From Shigella phage KNP5: a DNA stretch of 64,000 nt. The stretch is from sequence record KX452698, one strand, 5' to 3'. Both the position numbers and the translations under genes were made by a program. Below, in pieces: positions 1-31,550 of the stretch (the first letter of the stretch is position 1; every line of letters begins with the position of its first letter). The notes below the pieces were generated by a model. That model was not told the DNA's origin and did no database searches. It saw nothing but the letters and a program-made list of their open reading frames with translations.

Positions 1-2963
<2,963 letters not shown>

Positions 2964-2991
2964 TATTAAAGCATATTAAAGAGGATTAAAA

Positions 2992-4971
2992 ATGACTTTA
3001 TTATCTCCGGGCATTGAGCTCAAAGAAACTACGGTTCAAAGCACCGTGGTTAATAACTCTACTGGTACAGCAGCTTTGGCCGGTAAATTCCAGTGGGGTC
3101 CTGCTTTTCAAATTAAACAGGTTACAAATGAAGTAGATTTAGTTAATACTTTTGGTCAACCTACAGCTGAAACTGCTGACTATTTTATGTCTGCAATGAA
3201 TTTCTTACAATACGGAAATGATTTGCGAGTTGTGCGTGCTGTCGATAGAGATACCGCTAAAAACTCATCTCCGATTGCCGGTAATATTGAATACACTATT
3301 TCTACCCCAGGTAGTAACTACGCGATTGGAGATAAAATCACGGTTAAGTATGTTTCAGAAGATGTTGAAACAGAATGTAAAGTTACCGAAGTAGATGCTG
3401 ATGGAAAAATTAAGAAAATTAATATTCCTACCGCAAAAATTATCGCTAAAGCGAAAGAAGTAGGCGAATATCCAGCATTAGGTTCTAACTGGACCGCGGA
3501 AATTTCTTCGTCTTCCTCTGGTTTAGCTGCAGTAATAACTCTTGGAAAAATTATTACTGATTCTGGTATTTTATTAGCTGAAATTGAAAATGCTGAAGCT
3601 GCTATGACAGCTGTTGACTTTCAAGCAAATCTCGAAAAATATGGAATTCCAGGAGTAGTAGCTCTTTATCCAGGCGAGTTGGGCGATAAAATCGAAATTG
3701 AAATCGTATCTAAAGCTGATTACGCAAAAGGTGCTTCTGCATTACTTCCAATTTATCCAGGTGGCGGAACACGCGCATCTACTGCCAAAGCAGTGTTTGG
3801 ATATGGACCACAAACTGATTCACAATACGCTATCATAGTTCGTCGCAATGATGCTATTGTTCAAAGCGTTGTTCTTTCGACAAAGCGAGGTGAAAAAGAT
3901 ATTTACGATAGTAACATCTATATTGACGACTTTTTCGCAAAAGGTGGTTCAGAATATATTTTCGCAACTGCACAAAACTGGCCAGAAGGCTTCTCTGGAA
4001 TTTTAACTCTGTCTGGTGGATTATCATCAAATGCTGAAGTAACAGCAGGAGATTTGATGGAAGCTTGGGACTTCTTTGCTGACCGTGAATCTGTTGATGT
4101 TCAGTTGTTTATTGCGGGTTCTTGTGCCGGTGAATCTTTAGAAACAGCATCTACTGTCCAAAAACACGTCGTTTCAATTGGGGATGCTCGCCAAGATTGC
4201 TTAGTACTGTGCTCGCCACCGCGTGAAACTGTAGTTGGAATTCCTGTAACTCGTGCTGTTGATAACTTAGTCAATTGGAGAACTGCAGCAGGTTCATACA
4301 CTGATAATAACTTTAATATCAGTTCAACCTACGCAGCAATTGATGGTAACTACAAGTATCAGTATGACAAATATAATGATGTAAATCGTTGGGTTCCATT
4401 AGCAGCTGATATTGCTGGTTTATGCGCGAGAACCGATAACGTTTCTCAGACTTGGATGTCTCCAGCTGGTTATAATCGCGGCCAGATTTTGAACGTTATT
4501 AAACTTGCTATTGAAACTCGCCAGGCGCAGCGCGACCGTTTATATCAAGAAGCTATCAACCCAGTAACTGGTACAGGTGGTGATGGTTACGTATTGTATG
4601 GTGATAAAACAGCTACTTCTGTTCCTTCTCCATTTGATCGTATTAACGTTCGTCGTCTGTTTAATATGTTGAAAACGAATATCGGACGTAGTTCAAAATA
4701 TCGTTTGTTCGAATTAAACAACGCGTTTACTCGTTCATCGTTCCGCACAGAAACTTCCCAGTACTTGCAGGGAATTAAAGCTCTCGGTGGAATTTATGAA
4801 TATCGTGTAGTTTGCGATACAACAAATAACACTCCGTCAGTAATTGATAGAAATGAGTTTGTTGCAACATTCTACATCCAACCGGCTAGAAGCATTAACT
4901 ACATTACCTTAAACTTCGTAGCAACTGCTACTGGCGCAGATTTCGATGAGTTAACTGGTCTTGCAGGTTAA
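2992..4971 (+). CDS. 18: contractile tail sheath protein gp18
   Basis: 659-aa ORF, T4 gp18 length; late promoter and SD upstream. Confidence 0.95.
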   Translation: MTLLSPGIELKETTVQSTVVNNSTGTAALAGKFQWGPAFQIKQVTNEVDLVNTFGQPTAETADYFMSAMNFLQYGNDLRVVRAVDRDTAKNSSPIAGNIEYTISTPGSNYAIGDKITVKYVSEDVETECKVTEVDADGKIKKINIPTAKIIAKAKEVGEYPALGSNWTAEISSSSSGLAAVITLGKIITDSGILLAEIENAEAAMTAVDFQANLEKYGIPGVVALYPGELGDKIEIEIVSKADYAKGASALLPIYPGGGTRASTAKAVFGYGPQTDSQYAIIVRRNDAIVQSVVLSTKRGEKDIYDSNIYIDDFFAKGGSEYIFATAQNWPEGFSGILTLSGGLSSNAEVTAGDLMEAWDFFADRESVDVQLFIAGSCAGESLETASTVQKHVVSIGDARQDCLVLCSPPRETVVGIPVTRAVDNLVNWRTAAGSYTDNNFNISSTYAAIDGNYKYQYDKYNDVNRWVPLAADIAGLCARTDNVSQTWMSPAGYNRGQILNVIKLAIETRQAQRDRLYQEAINPVTGTGGDGYVLYGDKTATSVPSPFDRINVRRLFNMLKTNIGRSSKYRLFELNNAFTRSSFRTETSQYLQGIKALGGIYEYRVVCDTTNNTPSVIDRNEFVATFYIQPARSINYITLNFVATATGADFDELTGLAG

Positions 4972-5087: not shown

Positions 5088-5579
5088 ATGTTTGTAGATG
5101 ATGTAACACGAGCGTTTGAATCTGGTGATTTTGCTCGACCTAACTTATTCCAAGTAGAAATTTCTTATCTTGGACAAAATTTTACGTTTCAATGCAAAGC
5201 CACTGCTTTACCAGCTGGTATTGTAGAAAAAATTCCAGTCGGATTTATGAACCGTAAAATTAACGTAGCAGGCGATCGTACATTCGATGACTGGACTGTT
5301 ACAGTAATGAACGATGAGGCACATGATGCTCGCCAGAAGTTTGTTGATTGGCAAAGCATTGCTGCTGGGCAAGGGAACGAAATTACTGGTGGAAAACCAG
5401 CAGAGTATAAAAAGAGCGCTGTTGTTCGCCAATACGCTCGTGATGCTAAAACTGTAACAAAAGAAGTCGAAATTAAAGGCCTGTGGCCTACTAACGTGGG
5501 TGAACTTCAATTAGATTGGGATTCAAACAATGAAATCCAAACCTTTGAAGTAACTCTTGCTCTCGATTATTGGGAATAA
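5088..5579 (+). CDS. 19: tail tube protein gp19
   Basis: 163-aa ORF, T4 gp19 length; two late promoters upstream. Confidence 0.95.
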   Translation: MFVDDVTRAFESGDFARPNLFQVEISYLGQNFTFQCKATALPAGIVEKIPVGFMNRKINVAGDRTFDDWTVTVMNDEAHDARQKFVDWQSIAAGQGNEITGGKPAEYKKSAVVRQYARDAKTVTKEVEIKGLWPTNVGELQLDWDSNNEIQTFEVTLALDYWE

Positions 5580-5611
5580 AATGAATGGGGAGAAATCCCC
5601 ATCCTGCTTAA

Positions 5612-7236
<1,625 letters not shown>

Positions 7237-7237
<1 letters not shown>

Positions 7238-7497
7238 TGGAAGGTTTAATTGAAGCTATTAAATCAAACGACCTCGTAGCCGCTCGTAAATTCTTTGCTG
7301 AAGCCATGGCTGCAAGAACGATTGATTTAATTAAAGAAGAAAAAATCGCTATCGCTCGTAATTTCTTAATCGAAGGTGAAGAACCTGATGATGATGAGGA
7401 TGATGACGAAGACGAGGATGATGAAGATAGCGATGATAAAGACGACAAAAAAGACAAAGACTCTGACGAAGATGACGAAGACGAGGATGATGAATAA
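7237..7497 (+). CDS. 67: prohead core protein gp67 (acidic C-terminal tract)
   Basis: 86-aa ORF, D/E-rich tail; TAATG overlap with gp20 stop. Confidence 0.85.
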
Positions 7498-7922
7498 TGC
7501 TTCTGATCCCTGAAACTCATGAATTAGTTCTCGAGAATGTCGAAGCACTTATTCCTGAAGCACAGGGTCGCTTTGACGAATTGTCTTCTGCTTTAAATAA
7601 AGACGATATAAATACAATTGTCGAGAATATGCTTGATGATGAAACTGATTTAGCGATTGCATTAGCTTCTATTAATGAAGATATGCCGCTAAATGAATTC
7701 ATCGTTAAACATGTTTCTGCTCGTGGTGAAATTACACGTACCAAAGACCGTAAAACGCGTGAACGTAATGCATTTCAAACCACCGGGCTGTCTAAAGCAA
7801 AACGTAGACAAATTGCTCGCAAAGCTACCAAAACGAAGATTGCCAATCCAGCAGGTCAATCTCGTGCTCAGCGTAAGCGTAAAAAAGCTCTTAAACGCCG
7901 TAAAGCATTAGGATTAAGCTAA
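7497..7922 (+). CDS. 68: prohead core protein gp68
   Basis: 141-aa ORF; TAATG coupling to gp67. Confidence 0.85.
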
Positions 7923-26814: not shown

Positions 26815-26817
26815 CAA

Positions 26818-26842
26818 TGGGGACCGAAAGGTCCCCATATTT
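26818..26842. terminator. bidirectional terminator between gene 54 and the minus-strand block
   Basis: GGGGACC-GAAA-GGTCCCC followed by ATATTTTTATTT. Confidence 0.75.
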
Positions 26843-27133
26843 TTATTTACGGAATGAAATAAAAGCAGCAACTGAAGCAACTAAACTGTCTTCAATATAA
26901 ACTTCAATTTTTACCGGAGCTTCTGACTCAAATTTACCTGTTACTACACCTTGGAAAATGCTTTCAGTCTGCTCTGGCTTTGAAAAATTTTCAGAAGGAA
27001 AAATTCCGAACTTTTTATCTGTTCCAAAAATTTTGATAAATTCATCGTAAACTGCTTCATTAAAAGCGTTATCAGCAGGAATAACGCCTTCAACTACAAG
27101 TTCTTGACCTAAAAAGCGTAAAGAAGATTTCAT
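26843..27133 (-). CDS. hypothetical protein downstream of alt genes
   Basis: 96-aa ORF with its own early promoter-leader cassette and SD GAGGA. Confidence 0.65.
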   Translation of the reverse strand: MKSSLRFLGQELVVEGVIPADNAFNEAVYDEFIKIFGTDKKFGIFPSENFSKPEQTESIFQGVVTGKFESEAPVKIEVYIEDSLVASVAAFISFRK

Positions 27134-27140
27134 TTTGTGT

Positions 27141-27194
27141 TCCTCATGTTATGTCAGTAAGACTACTATAACACAACACGAGGGACTTGTAAAC
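27141..27194 (-). repeat. 54-nt promoter-leader cassette, copy 1
   Basis: 53/54 identical to 42893-42946. Confidence 0.9.
27165..27194 (-). promoter_or_regulatory. early promoter (GTTTAC, 18 nt, TATAGT), cassette copy 1
   Basis: minus strand GTTTACAAGTCCCTCGTGTTGTGTTATAGT; -35 overlaps alt-A stop. Confidence 0.65.
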
Positions 27195-29251
27195 TACATC
27201 TTGAACTTTTTAGACATTCCGTTAATGTTAACCAAAGAAGCCAAGATTTGAGAAACTTCGTTTTCCTCTTCTTTTGATTCTTCTACAAGGAATTGATTAA
27301 ACCCAGCCATTGGACGAACTTCGCCAGTTTCCATTAGATGATCGCCATCATATACCGATTCTTCTAATTGTTCAGAAGGAGGAACGATTGTGCCTTCGAT
27401 TAGATACTTGTTATAAGCAGTTTCTTTCATCATGTACGTGCTTACTTTATTAATCTTCAACAAAATTCCACGTGGTAGAATAACTTCAGCTTCTGATGGA
27501 AATCCTGATAAATGACCTGGAACGATAACTTTGATTCGCTCAGCCCCTTTAATTACCATACCTACGCTAGTTTCAGCATCTTCATTCGCATAAGCAGAAT
27601 GACTGCCCATATGCATTAAATCTTCAGCATCAACAGAACCTTCTCCTTCACCAGAAAATACTGCGCCGGAATCATCTAGAGCCATATAGTTTTTACCATG
27701 CTCACCGAAGATATTTGGTTTAAGCGATGTGGATACGAAGTTCTTGAAATAGAACATTTTATTTTCAATATTATGGCGTAAAGTTTTAAAAGTAACTTCT
27801 TGTCCACGATAAAGCGTAGTTCCTGGAGGAAGAACTGATCCTTTGGCGAATGCAGAATCCAGAGTCTCGATGTGTTTAATAGCTCGTTCCATGTATTCTT
27901 CACGGGTAGAATCTGGTTTACCCAAGAGGAACGAGTTCATTTCAACATATGAATCTGCACAATAATCTTCAATTACATCAGACTCAGCCTGAGTCAGTCC
28001 TTTTGGAGTTACTTCGGTGCTTGCGTATTCATATGCCTGAGCAGCAGATTCATTAATCAATTTATAAATGCCATTCATGACAAATTGAATAATAGCTACC
28101 TTTTCGTCTGGCGTAGCTTTAGAACCTTTAACTAAATCATTGATAATTTTCTTAATAACATCAAAGCTATTAGAAATATTAATGTCAGCGAGATCGCTCA
28201 AAATTTTATCGGTTTTATAATCAAAGAATTCTTTATTCTTTAAATATTCTTGAGAACCTTGATATGTTATATCGCTCTGCAGTCTGATAGACGGATCACG
28301 TAAACGTGCATGGGCCAATGCAATATGATTTCGGAAGCTTTCTAGTTCATAATCGTTAGATTTAAAACGAGAAGCACTTCTCATACCACCAATAGCTCCT
28401 TTGCCGAAGTTTGAACCAATCTGAATAACGCCAGAGTTCATTGGTCCTTCTGCTTTATATACCGGAACTTTAGATTCAAACTCTTGATATTTCTTAGCAG
28501 CGAAGCTATCACCCTGAAGTGAAGCATCTACAGTAGAATATTGAGCTTGCGCTGCTAATCGACGACTAATTTTAGTTTTCTGAATAACAGCTTGATCCGT
28601 GCGCTTATCATTTTCTAAAGCAATAGAAGCAGCAACAGCAACAGCTTTAGGAACAGCATTACCTGTTTTGACATCTACATAAACATCACCAACCTTTGAT
28701 TCAACTTTTGTGAATAACTCAGTTGAAATAGGAGGTACACCTGGAATGTCTTCTAAATTGGCATTTTTACGGTAAACCATAATATATGCATACTTTTTAT
28801 CATAATCCCAGATTTCCTTTAAAAGAACATATCGACCTGCTCCTTTAGTACGTACTAAACGGTCAGCAATAACTTGCATTTGACGAGCAGCGCCATTTGT
28901 TTTACTTTTTAGTACGCGGAATAGGCATGCGTCAATTTTATACTGTTTCATTGTTTGAAGAGCAGTATCAAAAACCGCATTAATGACACCAATTGGATTT
29001 CCACCCAAGTTTTTAAGTTTAACTAATGATAGTTTTTCATTAACACCTATCATTACGATATGCATCATTTTATCACCTTGCTTAACGTTTTTATTTGTAT
29101 CACCGCCAGAGGTGTATGTACAAAATCTAAATCCAGGAAGCACGCTTTCTTCACCGGCTTGAATAGCAAAAATTTGAGGTATTTTATGCTTAGGATTTAA
29201 GTTAACAACCGGCGCCGAAGCGCCGTCAAATAATTCTGTAATAAGTTCCAT
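27194..29251 (-). CDS. Alt-like ADP-ribosyltransferase, paralogue A (divergent central region)
   Basis: 685-aa ORF; N-terminus MELITELFD; YRGQ, FVSTSL and SEAEVILPRG (R / STS / ExE context); SD AAGGA 3 nt after upstream stop. Confidence 0.85.
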   Translation of the reverse strand: MELITELFDGASAPVVNLNPKHKIPQIFAIQAGEESVLPGFRFCTYTSGGDTNKNVKQGDKMMHIVMIGVNEKLSLVKLKNLGGNPIGVINAVFDTALQTMKQYKIDACLFRVLKSKTNGAARQMQVIADRLVRTKGAGRYVLLKEIWDYDKKYAYIMVYRKNANLEDIPGVPPISTELFTKVESKVGDVYVDVKTGNAVPKAVAVAASIALENDKRTDQAVIQKTKISRRLAAQAQYSTVDASLQGDSFAAKKYQEFESKVPVYKAEGPMNSGVIQIGSNFGKGAIGGMRSASRFKSNDYELESFRNHIALAHARLRDPSIRLQSDITYQGSQEYLKNKEFFDYKTDKILSDLADINISNSFDVIKKIINDLVKGSKATPDEKVAIIQFVMNGIYKLINESAAQAYEYASTEVTPKGLTQAESDVIEDYCADSYVEMNSFLLGKPDSTREEYMERAIKHIETLDSAFAKGSVLPPGTTLYRGQEVTFKTLRHNIENKMFYFKNFVSTSLKPNIFGEHGKNYMALDDSGAVFSGEGEGSVDAEDLMHMGSHSAYANEDAETSVGMVIKGAERIKVIVPGHLSGFPSEAEVILPRGILLKINKVSTYMMKETAYNKYLIEGTIVPPSEQLEESVYDGDHLMETGEVRPMAGFNQFLVEESKEEENEVSQILASLVNINGMSKKFKM

Positions 29252-29254
29252 GAT

Positions 29255-31312
29255 TTATCCTTGAACGAACTTGTAAGGCATGTTTGCAATATCTATGCAA
29301 GATGCAATAATTCCAAGAGATGATTCTACTTTTTGTTTAACATTTGATGAAACAAATGATGCAAAATCAACTCTGTCTTCTATTTCAATATCACCTGTCA
29401 TTGCAACTACTTCACCGGTTTCCATTAGACGGTCACCGTCATAAATTACTGATTCGGTGAGTTCTTCTGTAGTCATAACTTCAGCTTGAATAAGCTTGTT
29501 GTTAGTTTTAGCTGTTCCATCATTGTAAGATGCGTCGGTTATTTTATTGACTTTGACCATCAATCCACGCGGCAAAATGACTTCCATTTCATTTGAAGGC
29601 GCTAAACTTCCACCTGGTAAAACAACGTTGACTTTATCAGCCCCAGTAATAACCCATCCAATTCCAACTAAATTATCGCTAGAATTAACAAGTCCTTCAT
29701 CGTTTTTATCGATAGAAATGTTTAGACGCTTTTCGTCTGGTAAAACACCCACAGCTGAATCAGTCATCCAAGTACCAAAAATGTTTGGATATAATGATGT
29801 TGATACAAAATTTCTAAAATAAAAAACTCGATTTTTTACCAATGCTTCATATATTGAAGGTAACATTCGCTGTGAACGATATAAAGTAATACCTTTTGGC
29901 AGTCGATCACCATTTTTAAAGGCTGAATCTAAATTATCGATGGCTTGTTCTATTTCTGGTGCTGTTAAAATACTTGTACGCTCATCTGGATTATATAATC
30001 CCAAAAGAGCATTATTCATGTCTACATATCCTGAACCTACGTATTCACGAATTCCGCGTTTTTGTGCCGGTGTGTATTTAGATGAATCTTTATTTTCGAC
30101 TATAGAATGCAATGACCATCCAACGGTAAGAGCATATCCACGTAATTCTCTTCGAATAATCTTTGTTTTTATTGCATTCCAAGAATTTTGCACTAACTCA
30201 TTCGCAGCATCTTGATTTAAATGCGAATGCTTGTTAATATTTCTTTCTAACCAAGCACCTTTATATTTTTCTAAAGTATCATCAACTATAGAAGCAATAG
30301 TTTCTAAAGTTTTTATTGAAGTAATAGATTCTTTTCGTAATCTTTCTAAAGCTTTATTTTTTATTTCTGCATTAACATCAGATTCTTTATCTTCAGGAAT
30401 TATAGAAGCTTCTCTGAATGCCATTCCAGCTGTAACACTATTAAGAGCATTCTCTAATGCAAATCCTGAAGTAGAAATAACAGTTAATTCGTTAGCATCA
30501 GAAATTAAAGGCGCGTCAGCGGGTTTATTTAATTCTGCTGCTGAAGCCTCAAATTTTTGAAACATTGGTGTTTCAAATCTAGAAGATTCTAATGATTGAC
30601 TTTGCGCAATTGCTCTACGGGAAATTTTAACTTTAACGATTACAGCTTGGTCAGAACGTTTATCGTTTTCTTGCGCAATAGATGCTGCAATTGCCTCATT
30701 TTTAGTTACTTGAGCTCCGGTATCTTTATTGATATAAACATCGCCGACCTTCGATTCAACTTTAGTAAAGAGCTCGGTACTAATTTCAGGAACTCCTGGA
30801 ATGTCTTCTAATGATACATTTTTGCGATGTATAAGAATATATGCATACTTTTTATCGTAATCCCAGAGTTCCTTAAGAAGGACGTATCTGCCACCTGAAC
30901 GACTACGGATAAGTCTATCAGCAATAAGTTGAATTTGACGAGCTTGACCAGCAGTTTTAGACTTAAGAATACGGAGCATACAGGCATCAATTTTATACTG
31001 ACGCATCGTCTGCATTGCAACAGTAAAAACTGAATTGATGTAATTAATTGGGCTTGGACCGAGACCTTTTAATTTAGCAATTGAGCCTTTAGCAGTTAAT
31101 GTAAAAGGAACAATATGCATCATTTTATCGCCCATCTTTAAATCGCGATTAGTATCACCTCCAGATGTATAGGTACATAAACGAAAGCCTGGCTGTTCAA
31201 TTGCGTCATCAACATGAACTGAAAAAATTTGTGGTATTTTCTTCTTTGGATTTAAGTTTGTAATCGGAAGAGTAGTATCTTCGTCAAATAATTCTGTAAT
31301 GAGTTCCATCAT
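29255..31312 (-). CDS. alt: Alt ADP-ribosyltransferase, paralogue B
   Basis: 685-aa ORF; MMELITELFD; YRSQ, FVSTSL, NEMEVILPRG; late promoter and SD GAGAGGA upstream. Confidence 0.88.
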   Translation of the reverse strand: MMELITELFDEDTTLPITNLNPKKKIPQIFSVHVDDAIEQPGFRLCTYTSGGDTNRDLKMGDKMMHIVPFTLTAKGSIAKLKGLGPSPINYINSVFTVAMQTMRQYKIDACMLRILKSKTAGQARQIQLIADRLIRSRSGGRYVLLKELWDYDKKYAYILIHRKNVSLEDIPGVPEISTELFTKVESKVGDVYINKDTGAQVTKNEAIAASIAQENDKRSDQAVIVKVKISRRAIAQSQSLESSRFETPMFQKFEASAAELNKPADAPLISDANELTVISTSGFALENALNSVTAGMAFREASIIPEDKESDVNAEIKNKALERLRKESITSIKTLETIASIVDDTLEKYKGAWLERNINKHSHLNQDAANELVQNSWNAIKTKIIRRELRGYALTVGWSLHSIVENKDSSKYTPAQKRGIREYVGSGYVDMNNALLGLYNPDERTSILTAPEIEQAIDNLDSAFKNGDRLPKGITLYRSQRMLPSIYEALVKNRVFYFRNFVSTSLYPNIFGTWMTDSAVGVLPDEKRLNISIDKNDEGLVNSSDNLVGIGWVITGADKVNVVLPGGSLAPSNEMEVILPRGLMVKVNKITDASYNDGTAKTNNKLIQAEVMTTEELTESVIYDGDRLMETGEVVAMTGDIEIEDRVDFASFVSSNVKQKVESSLGIIASCIDIANMPYKFVQG

Positions 31313-31332: not shown

Positions 31333-31340
31333 TATTTATA
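31333..31340 (-). promoter_or_regulatory. late promoter TATAAATA (alt paralogue pair)
   Basis: plus-strand TATTTATA 21 nt upstream of alt ATG. Confidence 0.65.
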
Positions 31341-31346
31341 AAATTA

Positions 31347-31364
31347 AAGGCCCGAAGGCCTTTA
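31347..31364 (-). terminator. hairpin downstream of the 62-aa ORF, upstream of the alt late promoter
   Basis: AAAGGCC-CGAA-GGCCTTT overlapping the stop codon. Confidence 0.55.
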
Positions 31365-31550
31365 ATAATCTATTGGTAAGAGAGTACGATATATTTCAAA
31401 CTTTGGACCTTTTTCATAGGTATCAAATGTTTCTGTGAATTTATTATAAGCATATGCATCTATAAATTCAATCATAATTTGTGATACAGAAGTAGAAACA
31501 TCTCCGCCTTCTTTTTGAGCAACGACAATTGTTTCTAAGTAAGCTTTCAT
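31362..31550 (-). CDS. hypothetical protein between gene 30 and alt
   Basis: 62-aa ORF; start overlaps ligase stop; terminator hairpin after its stop. Confidence 0.6.
   Translation of the reverse strand: MKAYLETIVVAQKEGGDVSTSVSQIMIEFIDAYAYNKFTETFDTYEKGPKFEIYRTLLPIDY

Follow-up and report, generated by a model that had tools for sequence, protein, structure and literature searches.

The alt locus of Shigella phage KNP5 (sequence record KX452698) raises the question of how two tandem genes for Alt-like ADP-ribosyltransferases (ARTs) relate to each other and to phage T4, for which a single Alt is usually described. We addressed this by computational analysis of a 64,000-nucleotide stretch of KNP5 DNA, referred to here as the window. 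The analysis makes it probable that the window holds the ancestral, complete alt locus, in which two old paralogues encode capsid-delivered, arginine-specific mono-ADP-ribosyltransferases with the mechanism and modular evolution set out below. A sequence-only reading of the window had placed two Alt-like open reading frames (ORFs) on the minus strand, at 29255-31312 (copy 1) and 27194-29251 (copy 2), behind a single late promoter, and this layout was confirmed: the TAA stop codon of copy 1 (29255-29257) is followed by the 3-nucleotide spacer ATC (29252-29254), copy 2 has its own Shine-Dalgarno sequence, and the late promoter is the sole minus-strand match to the consensus between 20546 and 36947. 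Copy 1 comprises 685 codons counted from its first ATG; its true start is most likely the second ATG (31309), from which it reads MELITELFD, as in T4 and the pSs-1 RefSeq annotation. The MELITELFD start is thereby common to both proteins, as first described, but the length of 685 codons given for each gene applies to copy 2 and most likely not to copy 1 (684 amino acids).

29255-31309, minus strand: copy 1, the T4 Alt orthologue (PF03496, E = 4.7e-34; PHROG 802; exact match to YP_009111015.1 and YP_010278322.1)
27194-29251, minus strand: copy 2, the type-2 Alt paralogue, 685 amino acids (exact match to YP_010278321.1)
29258-29262, minus strand: AAGGA, the Shine-Dalgarno sequence of copy 2, which overlaps copy 1 at its end and stands six nucleotides before the copy 2 ATG
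31333-31340, minus strand: T4-type late promoter consensus TATAAATA, preceding the pair

Both proteins showed collinear, full-length homology to T4 Alt (NP_049811), with 96% identity for copy 1 and 42% for copy 2. This marks copy 1 (29255-31309), the promoter-proximal gene in the same position between alt.1 and the downstream genes, as the T4 Alt orthologue, and answers a question that the sequence-only reading had left open. The window belongs to a Tequatrovirus akin to pSs-1 and KNP5; the locus region was 99.1% identical to that of Shigella phage pSs-1, and both proteins were exact matches to pSs-1/KNP5 RefSeq entries named 'Alt-like RNA polymerase ADP-ribosyltransferase'.

The comparison also revealed what is left of copy 2 in T4. 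Alt.-1 of T4 (NP_049810) matched residues 1-61 of copy 2 at 90% identity and Alt.-2 (NP_049809) matched residues 62-116 at 98% identity, together accounting for the first 116 codons (5') of the gene; alt.-1 and alt.-2 form PHROGs of their own (23015 and 15247), which matched the same stretches. T4 DNA was collinear with the window up to the 9-mer CTAAAAAGT, where the flank switched exactly. This 9-mer occurs just twice in the window:

28904-28912, minus strand: 5' copy of direct repeat CTAAAAAGT, left edge of the segment deleted in T4
27205-27213, minus strand: 3' copy of direct repeat CTAAAAAGT, bounding the T4 deletion on the right at a distance of 1,699 bp from the 5' copy

The split between alt.-1 and alt.-2 corresponds to one A missing from an A-run, which shifts the frame. 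The break in T4 collinearity at the CTAAAAAGT repeats and the lost A therefore identify alt.-1/alt.-2 as a remnant of copy 2: the T4 gene was broken by a 1-nucleotide deletion and a 1,699-bp deletion between the repeats, whereas the gene in the window is intact. The T4 record's own note calls alt.-1/alt.-2 an 'old duplication of the first part of gene alt'. The T6 record labels the intact gene an 'apparent insertion in alt.-2'; our comparison indicates a deletion in T4 instead. The view that T4 has a single Alt is correct for full-length genes but overlooks the remnant of copy 2 that persists as alt.-1/alt.-2.

The intact pair is the usual state of the locus in the T-even genomes compared, and T4 is a deletion derivative. 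The whole 4.8-kb locus was covered over at least 80% of its length in 374 phage records, and the segment absent from T4 was present in 400. The centre of copy 2 was conserved at 95-100% protein identity in about 400 Tequatrovirus records (T2, T6, RB33, RB68, AR1 and PST among them), with 44.6% identity in Dhakavirus and 24.5% in Moonvirus. The T4-type junction was contiguous in 91 of 496 records (~18%), including the non-T4 phages JEP6, IME537 and ELT1. The N-terminal module common to both proteins had 1,817 occurrences across 1,200 records, and tandem arrays stood at the same locus elsewhere, with three copies in Dhakavirus QL01 and two each in Moonvirus NM4.3, Shewanella Thanatos-1 and Aeromonas asfd_1h. 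These arrays and those of 44RR and RB49 (PMC1524935) resemble the window pair in their place beside gene 54/alt.-3, their head-to-tail orientation, their domain order and their spacers (3 to a few tens of nucleotides), but differ from it in copy number and cassette types. The arrangement is thus not the unusual one it had been taken for, with about 400 Tequatrovirus records, T2 and T6 included, carrying the pair and other genera carrying two or three copies. Nor does it represent an element of a novel type: public annotation (hundreds of genomes) and the literature already cover the gene pair, the family to which it is assigned and the T4 remnant, and paralogous alt duplications, including T4 alt.-1/alt.-2, were remarked by Nolan et al. 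2006 (PMC1524935). The sequence-only reading had named relatives carrying the same two genes with known functions as a finding that would count against it; the survey of T-even genomes revealed the genes but not a known function for copy 2. A literature search found no paper assigning a substrate, packaging status or phenotype to copy 2, and returned only the 2006 duplication remark and general Alt reviews.

Both copies are members of the ART family with a full set of catalytic residues. PF03496 (ADPrib_exo_Tox) scored 117.9 bits for copy 1 and 72.8 bits for copy 2 (gathering cut-off, 23.4), PHROG 802 matched both end to end (E = 4e-263 and 4e-255, respectively), and the ART fold was recognised in both. 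The catalytic arginine lies in LYRSQ in copy 1 (R478) and LYRGQ in copy 2 (R482), FVSTS is present in both (S503 and S505; S507 and S509), and the E-x-E motif reads EMEVILPRG in copy 1 (E574, E576) and EAEVILPRG in copy 2 (E587, E589). Across 14 diverse homologues the R, S-T-S and E-x-E columns did not vary, and among 57 family representatives their conservation was 90% or higher. Retention of the catalytic context in both genes, as originally proposed, was therefore upheld, and the case of one copy without these residues did not arise. On sequence and fold grounds, copy 2 appears catalytically complete. An E-x-E motif, unlike Q-x-E, suggests arginine specificity by analogy with iota/VIP2 versus C3 toxins. 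The tail of copy 2 contributes further invariant columns (E631, Y634, D635, G636, D637, E641, G643 and E644). No NCBIfam model was found for either protein, and a phmmer search with copy 2 against PDB sequences gave no match, a comparison that needs a profile search.

Other classes of ART were readily distinguished. Neither protein has the N-terminal MuF domain or multi-effector architecture of MuF-fused or polyvalent packaged ARTs. ModA and ModB of T4 are small proteins of ~200 amino acids. The window proteins are not early ARTs of this kind, at 684-685 amino acids with an N-terminal module and a late promoter. ModA and ModB belong to the same Alt/VIP2 clade of arginine-serine-glutamate (R-S-E) ARTs (PMC5512222), but are early, made after infection and unpackaged (PMC5512222, PMC2988021), and were set apart from the window proteins by description. 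C3-like, VIP2 and iota-type R-S-E toxins (Vis 4xzj, CPILE-a 5gtt, Certhrax 4fxq, C3bot2 1r45 and VIP2 1qs1) were 14-25% identical to the Alt copies. Unlike these toxins, the Alt proteins have no secretion or binding components, delivery being assigned to the phage-specific N-terminal module and the capsid, and the helical segment before their ART core is long and hypervariable.

The two proteins were then compared by region, using the following divisions.

30602-31309, minus strand: copy 1 N-terminal module (residues 1-236), predicted alpha/beta fold, predicted local distance difference test (pLDDT) 70-88
30074-30601, minus strand: copy 1 hypervariable all-helical centre (residues ~237-412), helices predicted
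29474-30073, minus strand: copy 1 ART domain (residues ~413-612), with R478 at 29876-29878, S503/S505, E574 at 29588-29590 and E576 at 29582-29584
28547-29251, minus strand: copy 2 N-terminal module (residues 1-235), starting with MELITE/LFD as copy 1 does (the slash marks the putative cleavage point)
28007-28546, minus strand: copy 2 hypervariable all-helical centre (residues 236-415), helices predicted, pLDDT 80-93
27377-28006, minus strand: copy 2 ART domain (residues 416-625), with R482 at 27806-27808, S507/S509, E587 at 27491-27493, E589 at 27485-27487 and the aromatic residue F584 of the ADP-ribosylating toxin turn-turn (ARTT) loop
27194-27376, minus strand: copy 2 C-terminal tail (residues 626-685 and stop), with the family-invariant motif Y-D-G-D-x-L-M-E-T-G-E, low model confidence

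Pairwise BLASTP aligned the two proteins over their full length at 41% identity (E = 3e-158). The shared N-terminal ~230 residues that had been noted were confirmed, with 68% identity over residues 1-235 (hhalign E = 1e-102), and this third of the protein was unusually similar compared with the rest. Identity was 38-46% in the ART core (ART-domain hhalign E = 2e-45), ~20% in the loop at 521-570 and 29-38% in the C-terminal tail. The centres (residues 236-415) reached ~24% in a forced, gappy global alignment, which is noise level. Homology between them went undetected both by Smith-Waterman comparison (score 36 versus 31.4+-5.0 for shuffles, z = 0.9) and by hhalign of two type-specific profiles (probability 0.6%), and detectable homology of the central regions accordingly found no support in the sequences. 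As sole queries against an index of 5.8 billion proteins, the copy 2 centre gave no match and the copy 1 centre two fragments, for which a word-index limit is the likely reason. The predicted helices of the two centres were roughly collinear in number and length in models that share one alignment mixing both types; this gives a hint of a single ancestral helical domain that diverged to an extreme degree, although it may be an artefact of the shared alignment. The earlier description of residues ~235-430 as unrelated stands as far as the centres have no detectable homology, but divergence is not confined to them, the ART domain and tail having diverged strongly too.

Copy 2 is under strong purifying selection. 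Comparison of the window gene with that of T2 or T6 gave a synonymous divergence (dS) of 0.22-0.235 and a ratio of nonsynonymous to synonymous divergence (dN/dS) of 0.037, and the central segment alone gave a dN/dS of 0.05-0.09. The 90%-identity cluster of copy 2 has 772 members.

That the two enzymes may differ in target is suggested by the regions in which the two types differ. Type-2 proteins carry an aromatic residue in the ARTT loop five positions before the catalytic glutamate (GF-PS-EAE, EY-PE-EAE), which is absent from type 1 (LAPSN-EME, SPQSQ-EME, LGIAT-EAE); in C3-like toxins this position serves substrate recognition. Each type has a private centre, its own form of the loop that varies between S-T-S and E-x-E, and a type-specific ARTT loop; different targets for the two enzymes are therefore a reasonable inference, and these three elements would give rise to different target spectra. 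Immediately after injection, T4 Alt modifies Arg265 in one of the RNA polymerase alpha subunits, along with various other proteins of the host (PMC2988021). Copy 2 could also be imagined as a redundant back-up or dosage copy directed at Alt's own targets (RNA polymerase alpha Arg265 and others), which we consider unlikely. It has Alt's family, architecture, catalytic residues and arginine-type E-x-E motif, and to our knowledge T4 suffers no defect from being without it. Yet the two types have long been kept as separate lineages across genera, their ART cores are just 38-46% identical, their ARTT and variable loops differ, and their unrelated centres are each conserved within type under purifying selection. 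The same features separate copy 2 from T4 Alt itself: 42% identity overall, an unrelated central 180 residues, an ARTT aromatic residue that Alt does not have, and a different S-T-S/E-x-E loop.

The features that copy 2 does share with T4 Alt bear on its delivery. gpAlt is a component of the scaffolding core, present in ~40 copies, from which gp21 removes a small N-terminal peptide before injection with the DNA (PMC9958956, PMC2988021). Both window proteins carry I-T-E/L at residues 4-7, which is of the [LI]-x-E type and has an invariant E6, a putative gp21 cleavage motif. With Alt, copy 2 has in common its architecture, the N-terminal module (68% identity), the R/S-T-S/E-x-E residues, the YDGD-LMETGE motif, the PHROG 802 match and the late-promoter context. 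Because it has the same start, N-terminal domain, late unit and C-terminal YDGD-x-LMETGE motif, copy 2 would be packaged, processed and injected like Alt. In the proposed mechanism, both genes would be transcribed late from the single promoter at 31333-31340, with copy 2 translated from its own Shine-Dalgarno sequence; the ~235-residue N-terminal module would steer both proteins into the prohead scaffolding core; and the gp21 prohead protease would cut off the first six residues at I-T-E/L. Cleavage of copy 2 between E6 and L7 predicts the N-terminal semi-tryptic peptide LFDGASAPVVNLNPK. Both enzymes would then be ejected with the DNA and ADP-ribosylate host arginines, using NAD+, before any phage gene is expressed.

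The C-terminal motif E-S-x(1,3)-Y-D-G-D-x-[LF]-[LM]-E-[TS]-G-E, at residues 617-633 of copy 1 and 629-644 of copy 2, was invariant across genera. It holds two [LI]-x-E sites of gp21 type (LTE/S or LEE/S, plus LME/T), which raise the possibility of a second, C-terminal processing by gp21; the literature cited here mentions N-terminal cleavage only.

An active copy 2 might instead stay unpackaged, acting late in the producing cell or serving as a morphogenetic or scaffold-associated protein with a secondary enzymatic role. The late promoter would fit such a late intracellular role equally well, but copy 2 shares the N-terminal module and the MELITE/LFD start with packaged Alt, and this module is confined to Alt-like proteins encoded beside baseplate and head genes (PMC5512222), which makes the suggestion improbable. 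Among 1.84 billion representatives, the module formed 69 clusters at 50% identity; it was always N-terminal and belonged to Alt-like proteins only. An ART accompanied it in 55 of 57 representatives and no other Pfam domain was seen with it, which ruled it out as a general capsid-delivery carrier of varied cargo. The module thus behaves as a dedicated delivery/assembly domain, judged by its distribution. Acinetobacter T4-like phages ZZ1 and Henu6 (BFVD I3WW50, A0A410T5F4 and A0A410T542) carry what is annotated as a 'split RNA polymerase ADP-ribosylase': separate ORFs seem to encode its N-terminal module and its ART part. The internal proteins IPI, IPII and IPIII of T-even phages offer a parallel: they are non-essential, packaged, gp21-processed, injected and encoded at variable loci, and they combine a conserved N-terminal targeting element with a variable body (PMC3012670, PMC12373910). 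In contrast to the Alt paralogues, which are large enzymes with a 235-residue N-terminal domain, they are small stoichiometric inhibitors of restriction enzymes with a 10-residue targeting sequence.

We also examined the history of the pair, which had been described as a duplicate with a replaced middle. The dS between copies 1 and 2 was 1.3-1.6 in every region and thus saturated, including the N-terminal modules (1.33); neither the duplication nor any homogenisation was therefore recent, and on this ground we rejected the idea that the similar N-termini stem from a duplication, or a gene conversion, of recent date. Groupings were made with seven, then nineteen paralogues from five lineages. 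Centre, ART domain and tail grouped by type across genera, copy 1 with QL01-1 and copy 2 with QL01-3 and NM4.3-2 (bootstrap 97-100). In contrast, the N-terminal module grouped by phage lineage (Tequatrovirus types 1 and 2 together at 99, Dhakavirus 100, Thanatos 100), with a support of 0 for type clades. In both trees the two Aeromonas genes grouped together, as if duplicated within that lineage. Two processes, alone or combined, could have made the N-terminal module group by lineage: gene conversion within the tandem and exchange of cassettes among phages.

The unrelated centres proved to be the rule across the family. Among 53 full-length Alt representatives, mean pairwise identity was 38.6% for the N-terminal module and 31-41% for the ART core, and 10.9% for the centre and 11.6% for the loop from S-T-S to E-x-E. 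The centres of these representatives fell into 41 groups that BLAST could not link, and the ART domains formed one group; a lack of relation between centres thus characterises the family as a whole. Cassettes have truly been replaced at the locus, as comparison of T2/T6 with T4 indicates, between alleles of copy 1. The T2/T6 Alt (697 amino acids) was 98-100% identical to copy 1 over residues 1-240 and from 626 to the end, and 18-70% identical between them, and its ART domain was 88-98% identical to that of Dhakavirus QL01-1, against 30-55% for the N-terminal modules. This looks like a recent transfer of the enzyme cassette between genera. The mosaic Alt genes lie at 5542-7635 (T2) and 1205-3298 (T6) of the extracted loci, and copy 1 of Dhakavirus QL01 lies at 156-2240 of its own. 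At position 1, the T4-type cassette was in the minority, with 173 phage records at 90% identity or above versus 612 below 60%. The locus of QL01, an Escherichia phage (156-6416), contains three tandem Alt-like genes; copies 2 and 3 were ~90% identical over the N-terminal first 200 residues and 12-42% identical in centre and ART, a more extreme case of the same modular pattern. The longest contig was 14,051 bp both for protein cluster P0009, a type-2 cluster with 74% identity to copy 2, and for the type-1 cluster P0018, so the two may lie on one contig. They would then be the tandem pair of an unsequenced relative, with N-terminal modules ~90% and centres 15-60% identical to those of the window, and would suggest further cassette variants.

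These results bear directly on a recent tandem duplication of alt followed by foreign replacement of the central region only. The far greater similarity of the N-terminal 235 residues (68%) over the rest, the absence of detectable homology between the centres and the reality of cassette replacement at the locus, between copy 1 alleles of T2/T6, all have the look of such an event. Its prospects are nonetheless poor, given that dS is saturated even at the N-terminus, the ART domain and tail have diverged as well, each copy has its own orthologues in Dhakavirus and Moonvirus, and unrelated centres are the family rule; the duplicate with a replaced middle is the wrong history. Taken together, the trees and alignments favour two old paralogues built of modules, for which 'swapped centre' is a misleading term. 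The locus would evolve by modules, the N-terminal packaging module being lineage-specific and old centre+ART cassette types being retained, lost or exchanged. That copy 2 is instead a decaying gene or pseudo-enzyme heading for loss, as its loss in T4 and 91 of 496 records and the split or fragmented versions annotated elsewhere (phage sb4; truncated clusters P0006, P0008 and P0010) might suggest, is scarcely credible for an intact 685-residue ORF in T2, T6 and the window with a dN/dS of 0.037, invariant catalytic residues and a 772-member cluster.

Several points weigh against our preferred interpretation of the window as an ancestral locus encoding two capsid-delivered enzymes. The expression, packaging, cleavage and activity of copy 2 are inferred from sequence, and the target differences are read from sequence divergence and from the ARTT-loop analogy with C3- and iota-type toxins. 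Copy 2 is missing from T4 and 90 other records and can therefore be dispensed with, on laboratory hosts at least. The structural models were built from a shallow 14-sequence alignment (pLDDT 77 and 73), with low confidence in the tail and variable loop. Finally, gene conversion, cassette exchange or the two together would fit the lineage-wise grouping of the N-terminal module.

The surroundings of the pair are those of an Alt-family locus, running leftward from gene 30/alt.1 through the pair to alt.-3/gene 54 behind the late promoter. Three further features frame it.

31346-31363, minus strand: hairpin rich in G+C (AAAGGCC-TTCG-GGCCTTT), read from the sequence; it overlaps the stop codon of alt.1 and lies a short way upstream of the late promoter
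26843-27133, minus strand: alt.-3 homologue (DUF5498, PF17602), 96 amino acids, the downstream neighbour, 100% identical to T4 Alt.-3
26817-26838, no strand assigned: bidirectional terminator hairpin between gene 54 and alt.-3, closing the leftward unit

The hairpin at 31346-31363 is the probable terminator of the upstream ligase/alt.1 unit, although it was missing from the output of a simple terminator scan; Nolan 2006 (PMC1524935) reported that a terminator is conserved upstream of alt. The alt.1 homologue (31362-31550, minus strand, 62 amino acids) matched the Pfam family PF24647 'Phage blade protein' (E = 5e-29); 4 nucleotides of it overlap the stop of the ligase gene, and its 3' end lies inside the hairpin that precedes the alt late promoter. 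The alt.-3 homologue is probably the final gene of the leftward alt unit. Between the copy 2 stop and alt.-3 lies a sigma-70-like promoter (27165-27193, minus strand; TTTACA, 17 nucleotides, TATAGT, with TG in front), which is kept in T4 just downstream of the deletion junction and may allow early alt.-3 expression independent of the late alt unit. In T4, Alt.-3 mutants with an extended C-terminus escape the CmdTAC defence system (PMC11618068).

With the gene pair itself already on record, what is still of interest is the type-2 enzyme and the way the locus evolves, by modules and with a tendency to exchange. Work on phage ADP-ribosylation was built on T4, described with three ARTs (Alt together with ModA and ModB); the locus shows T4 to be the exception. 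A broader proposal, which we regard as evenly poised, is that two different ARTs are injected by the majority of T-even phages (T2, T6 and ~80% of sequenced Tequatroviruses), and that the type-2 enzyme was missed because its gene is deleted in T4. This enzyme would act on one or more host targets of its own, perhaps a protein of defence or of the stress response, which it would recognise by means of the private helical domain and the ARTT loop, and the alt locus would be an array of effector cassettes in which a lineage-specific delivery module is joined to exchangeable centre+ART cassettes, including some recently transferred between genera. The conservation of copy 2 makes a testable question of the substrate of the second injected ART and of the hosts in which it matters. 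The combination of a constant delivery module with exchangeable enzyme cassettes bears on host-range differences among therapeutic T4-like phages, and the modular pattern may be useful for engineering capsid-delivered cargo.

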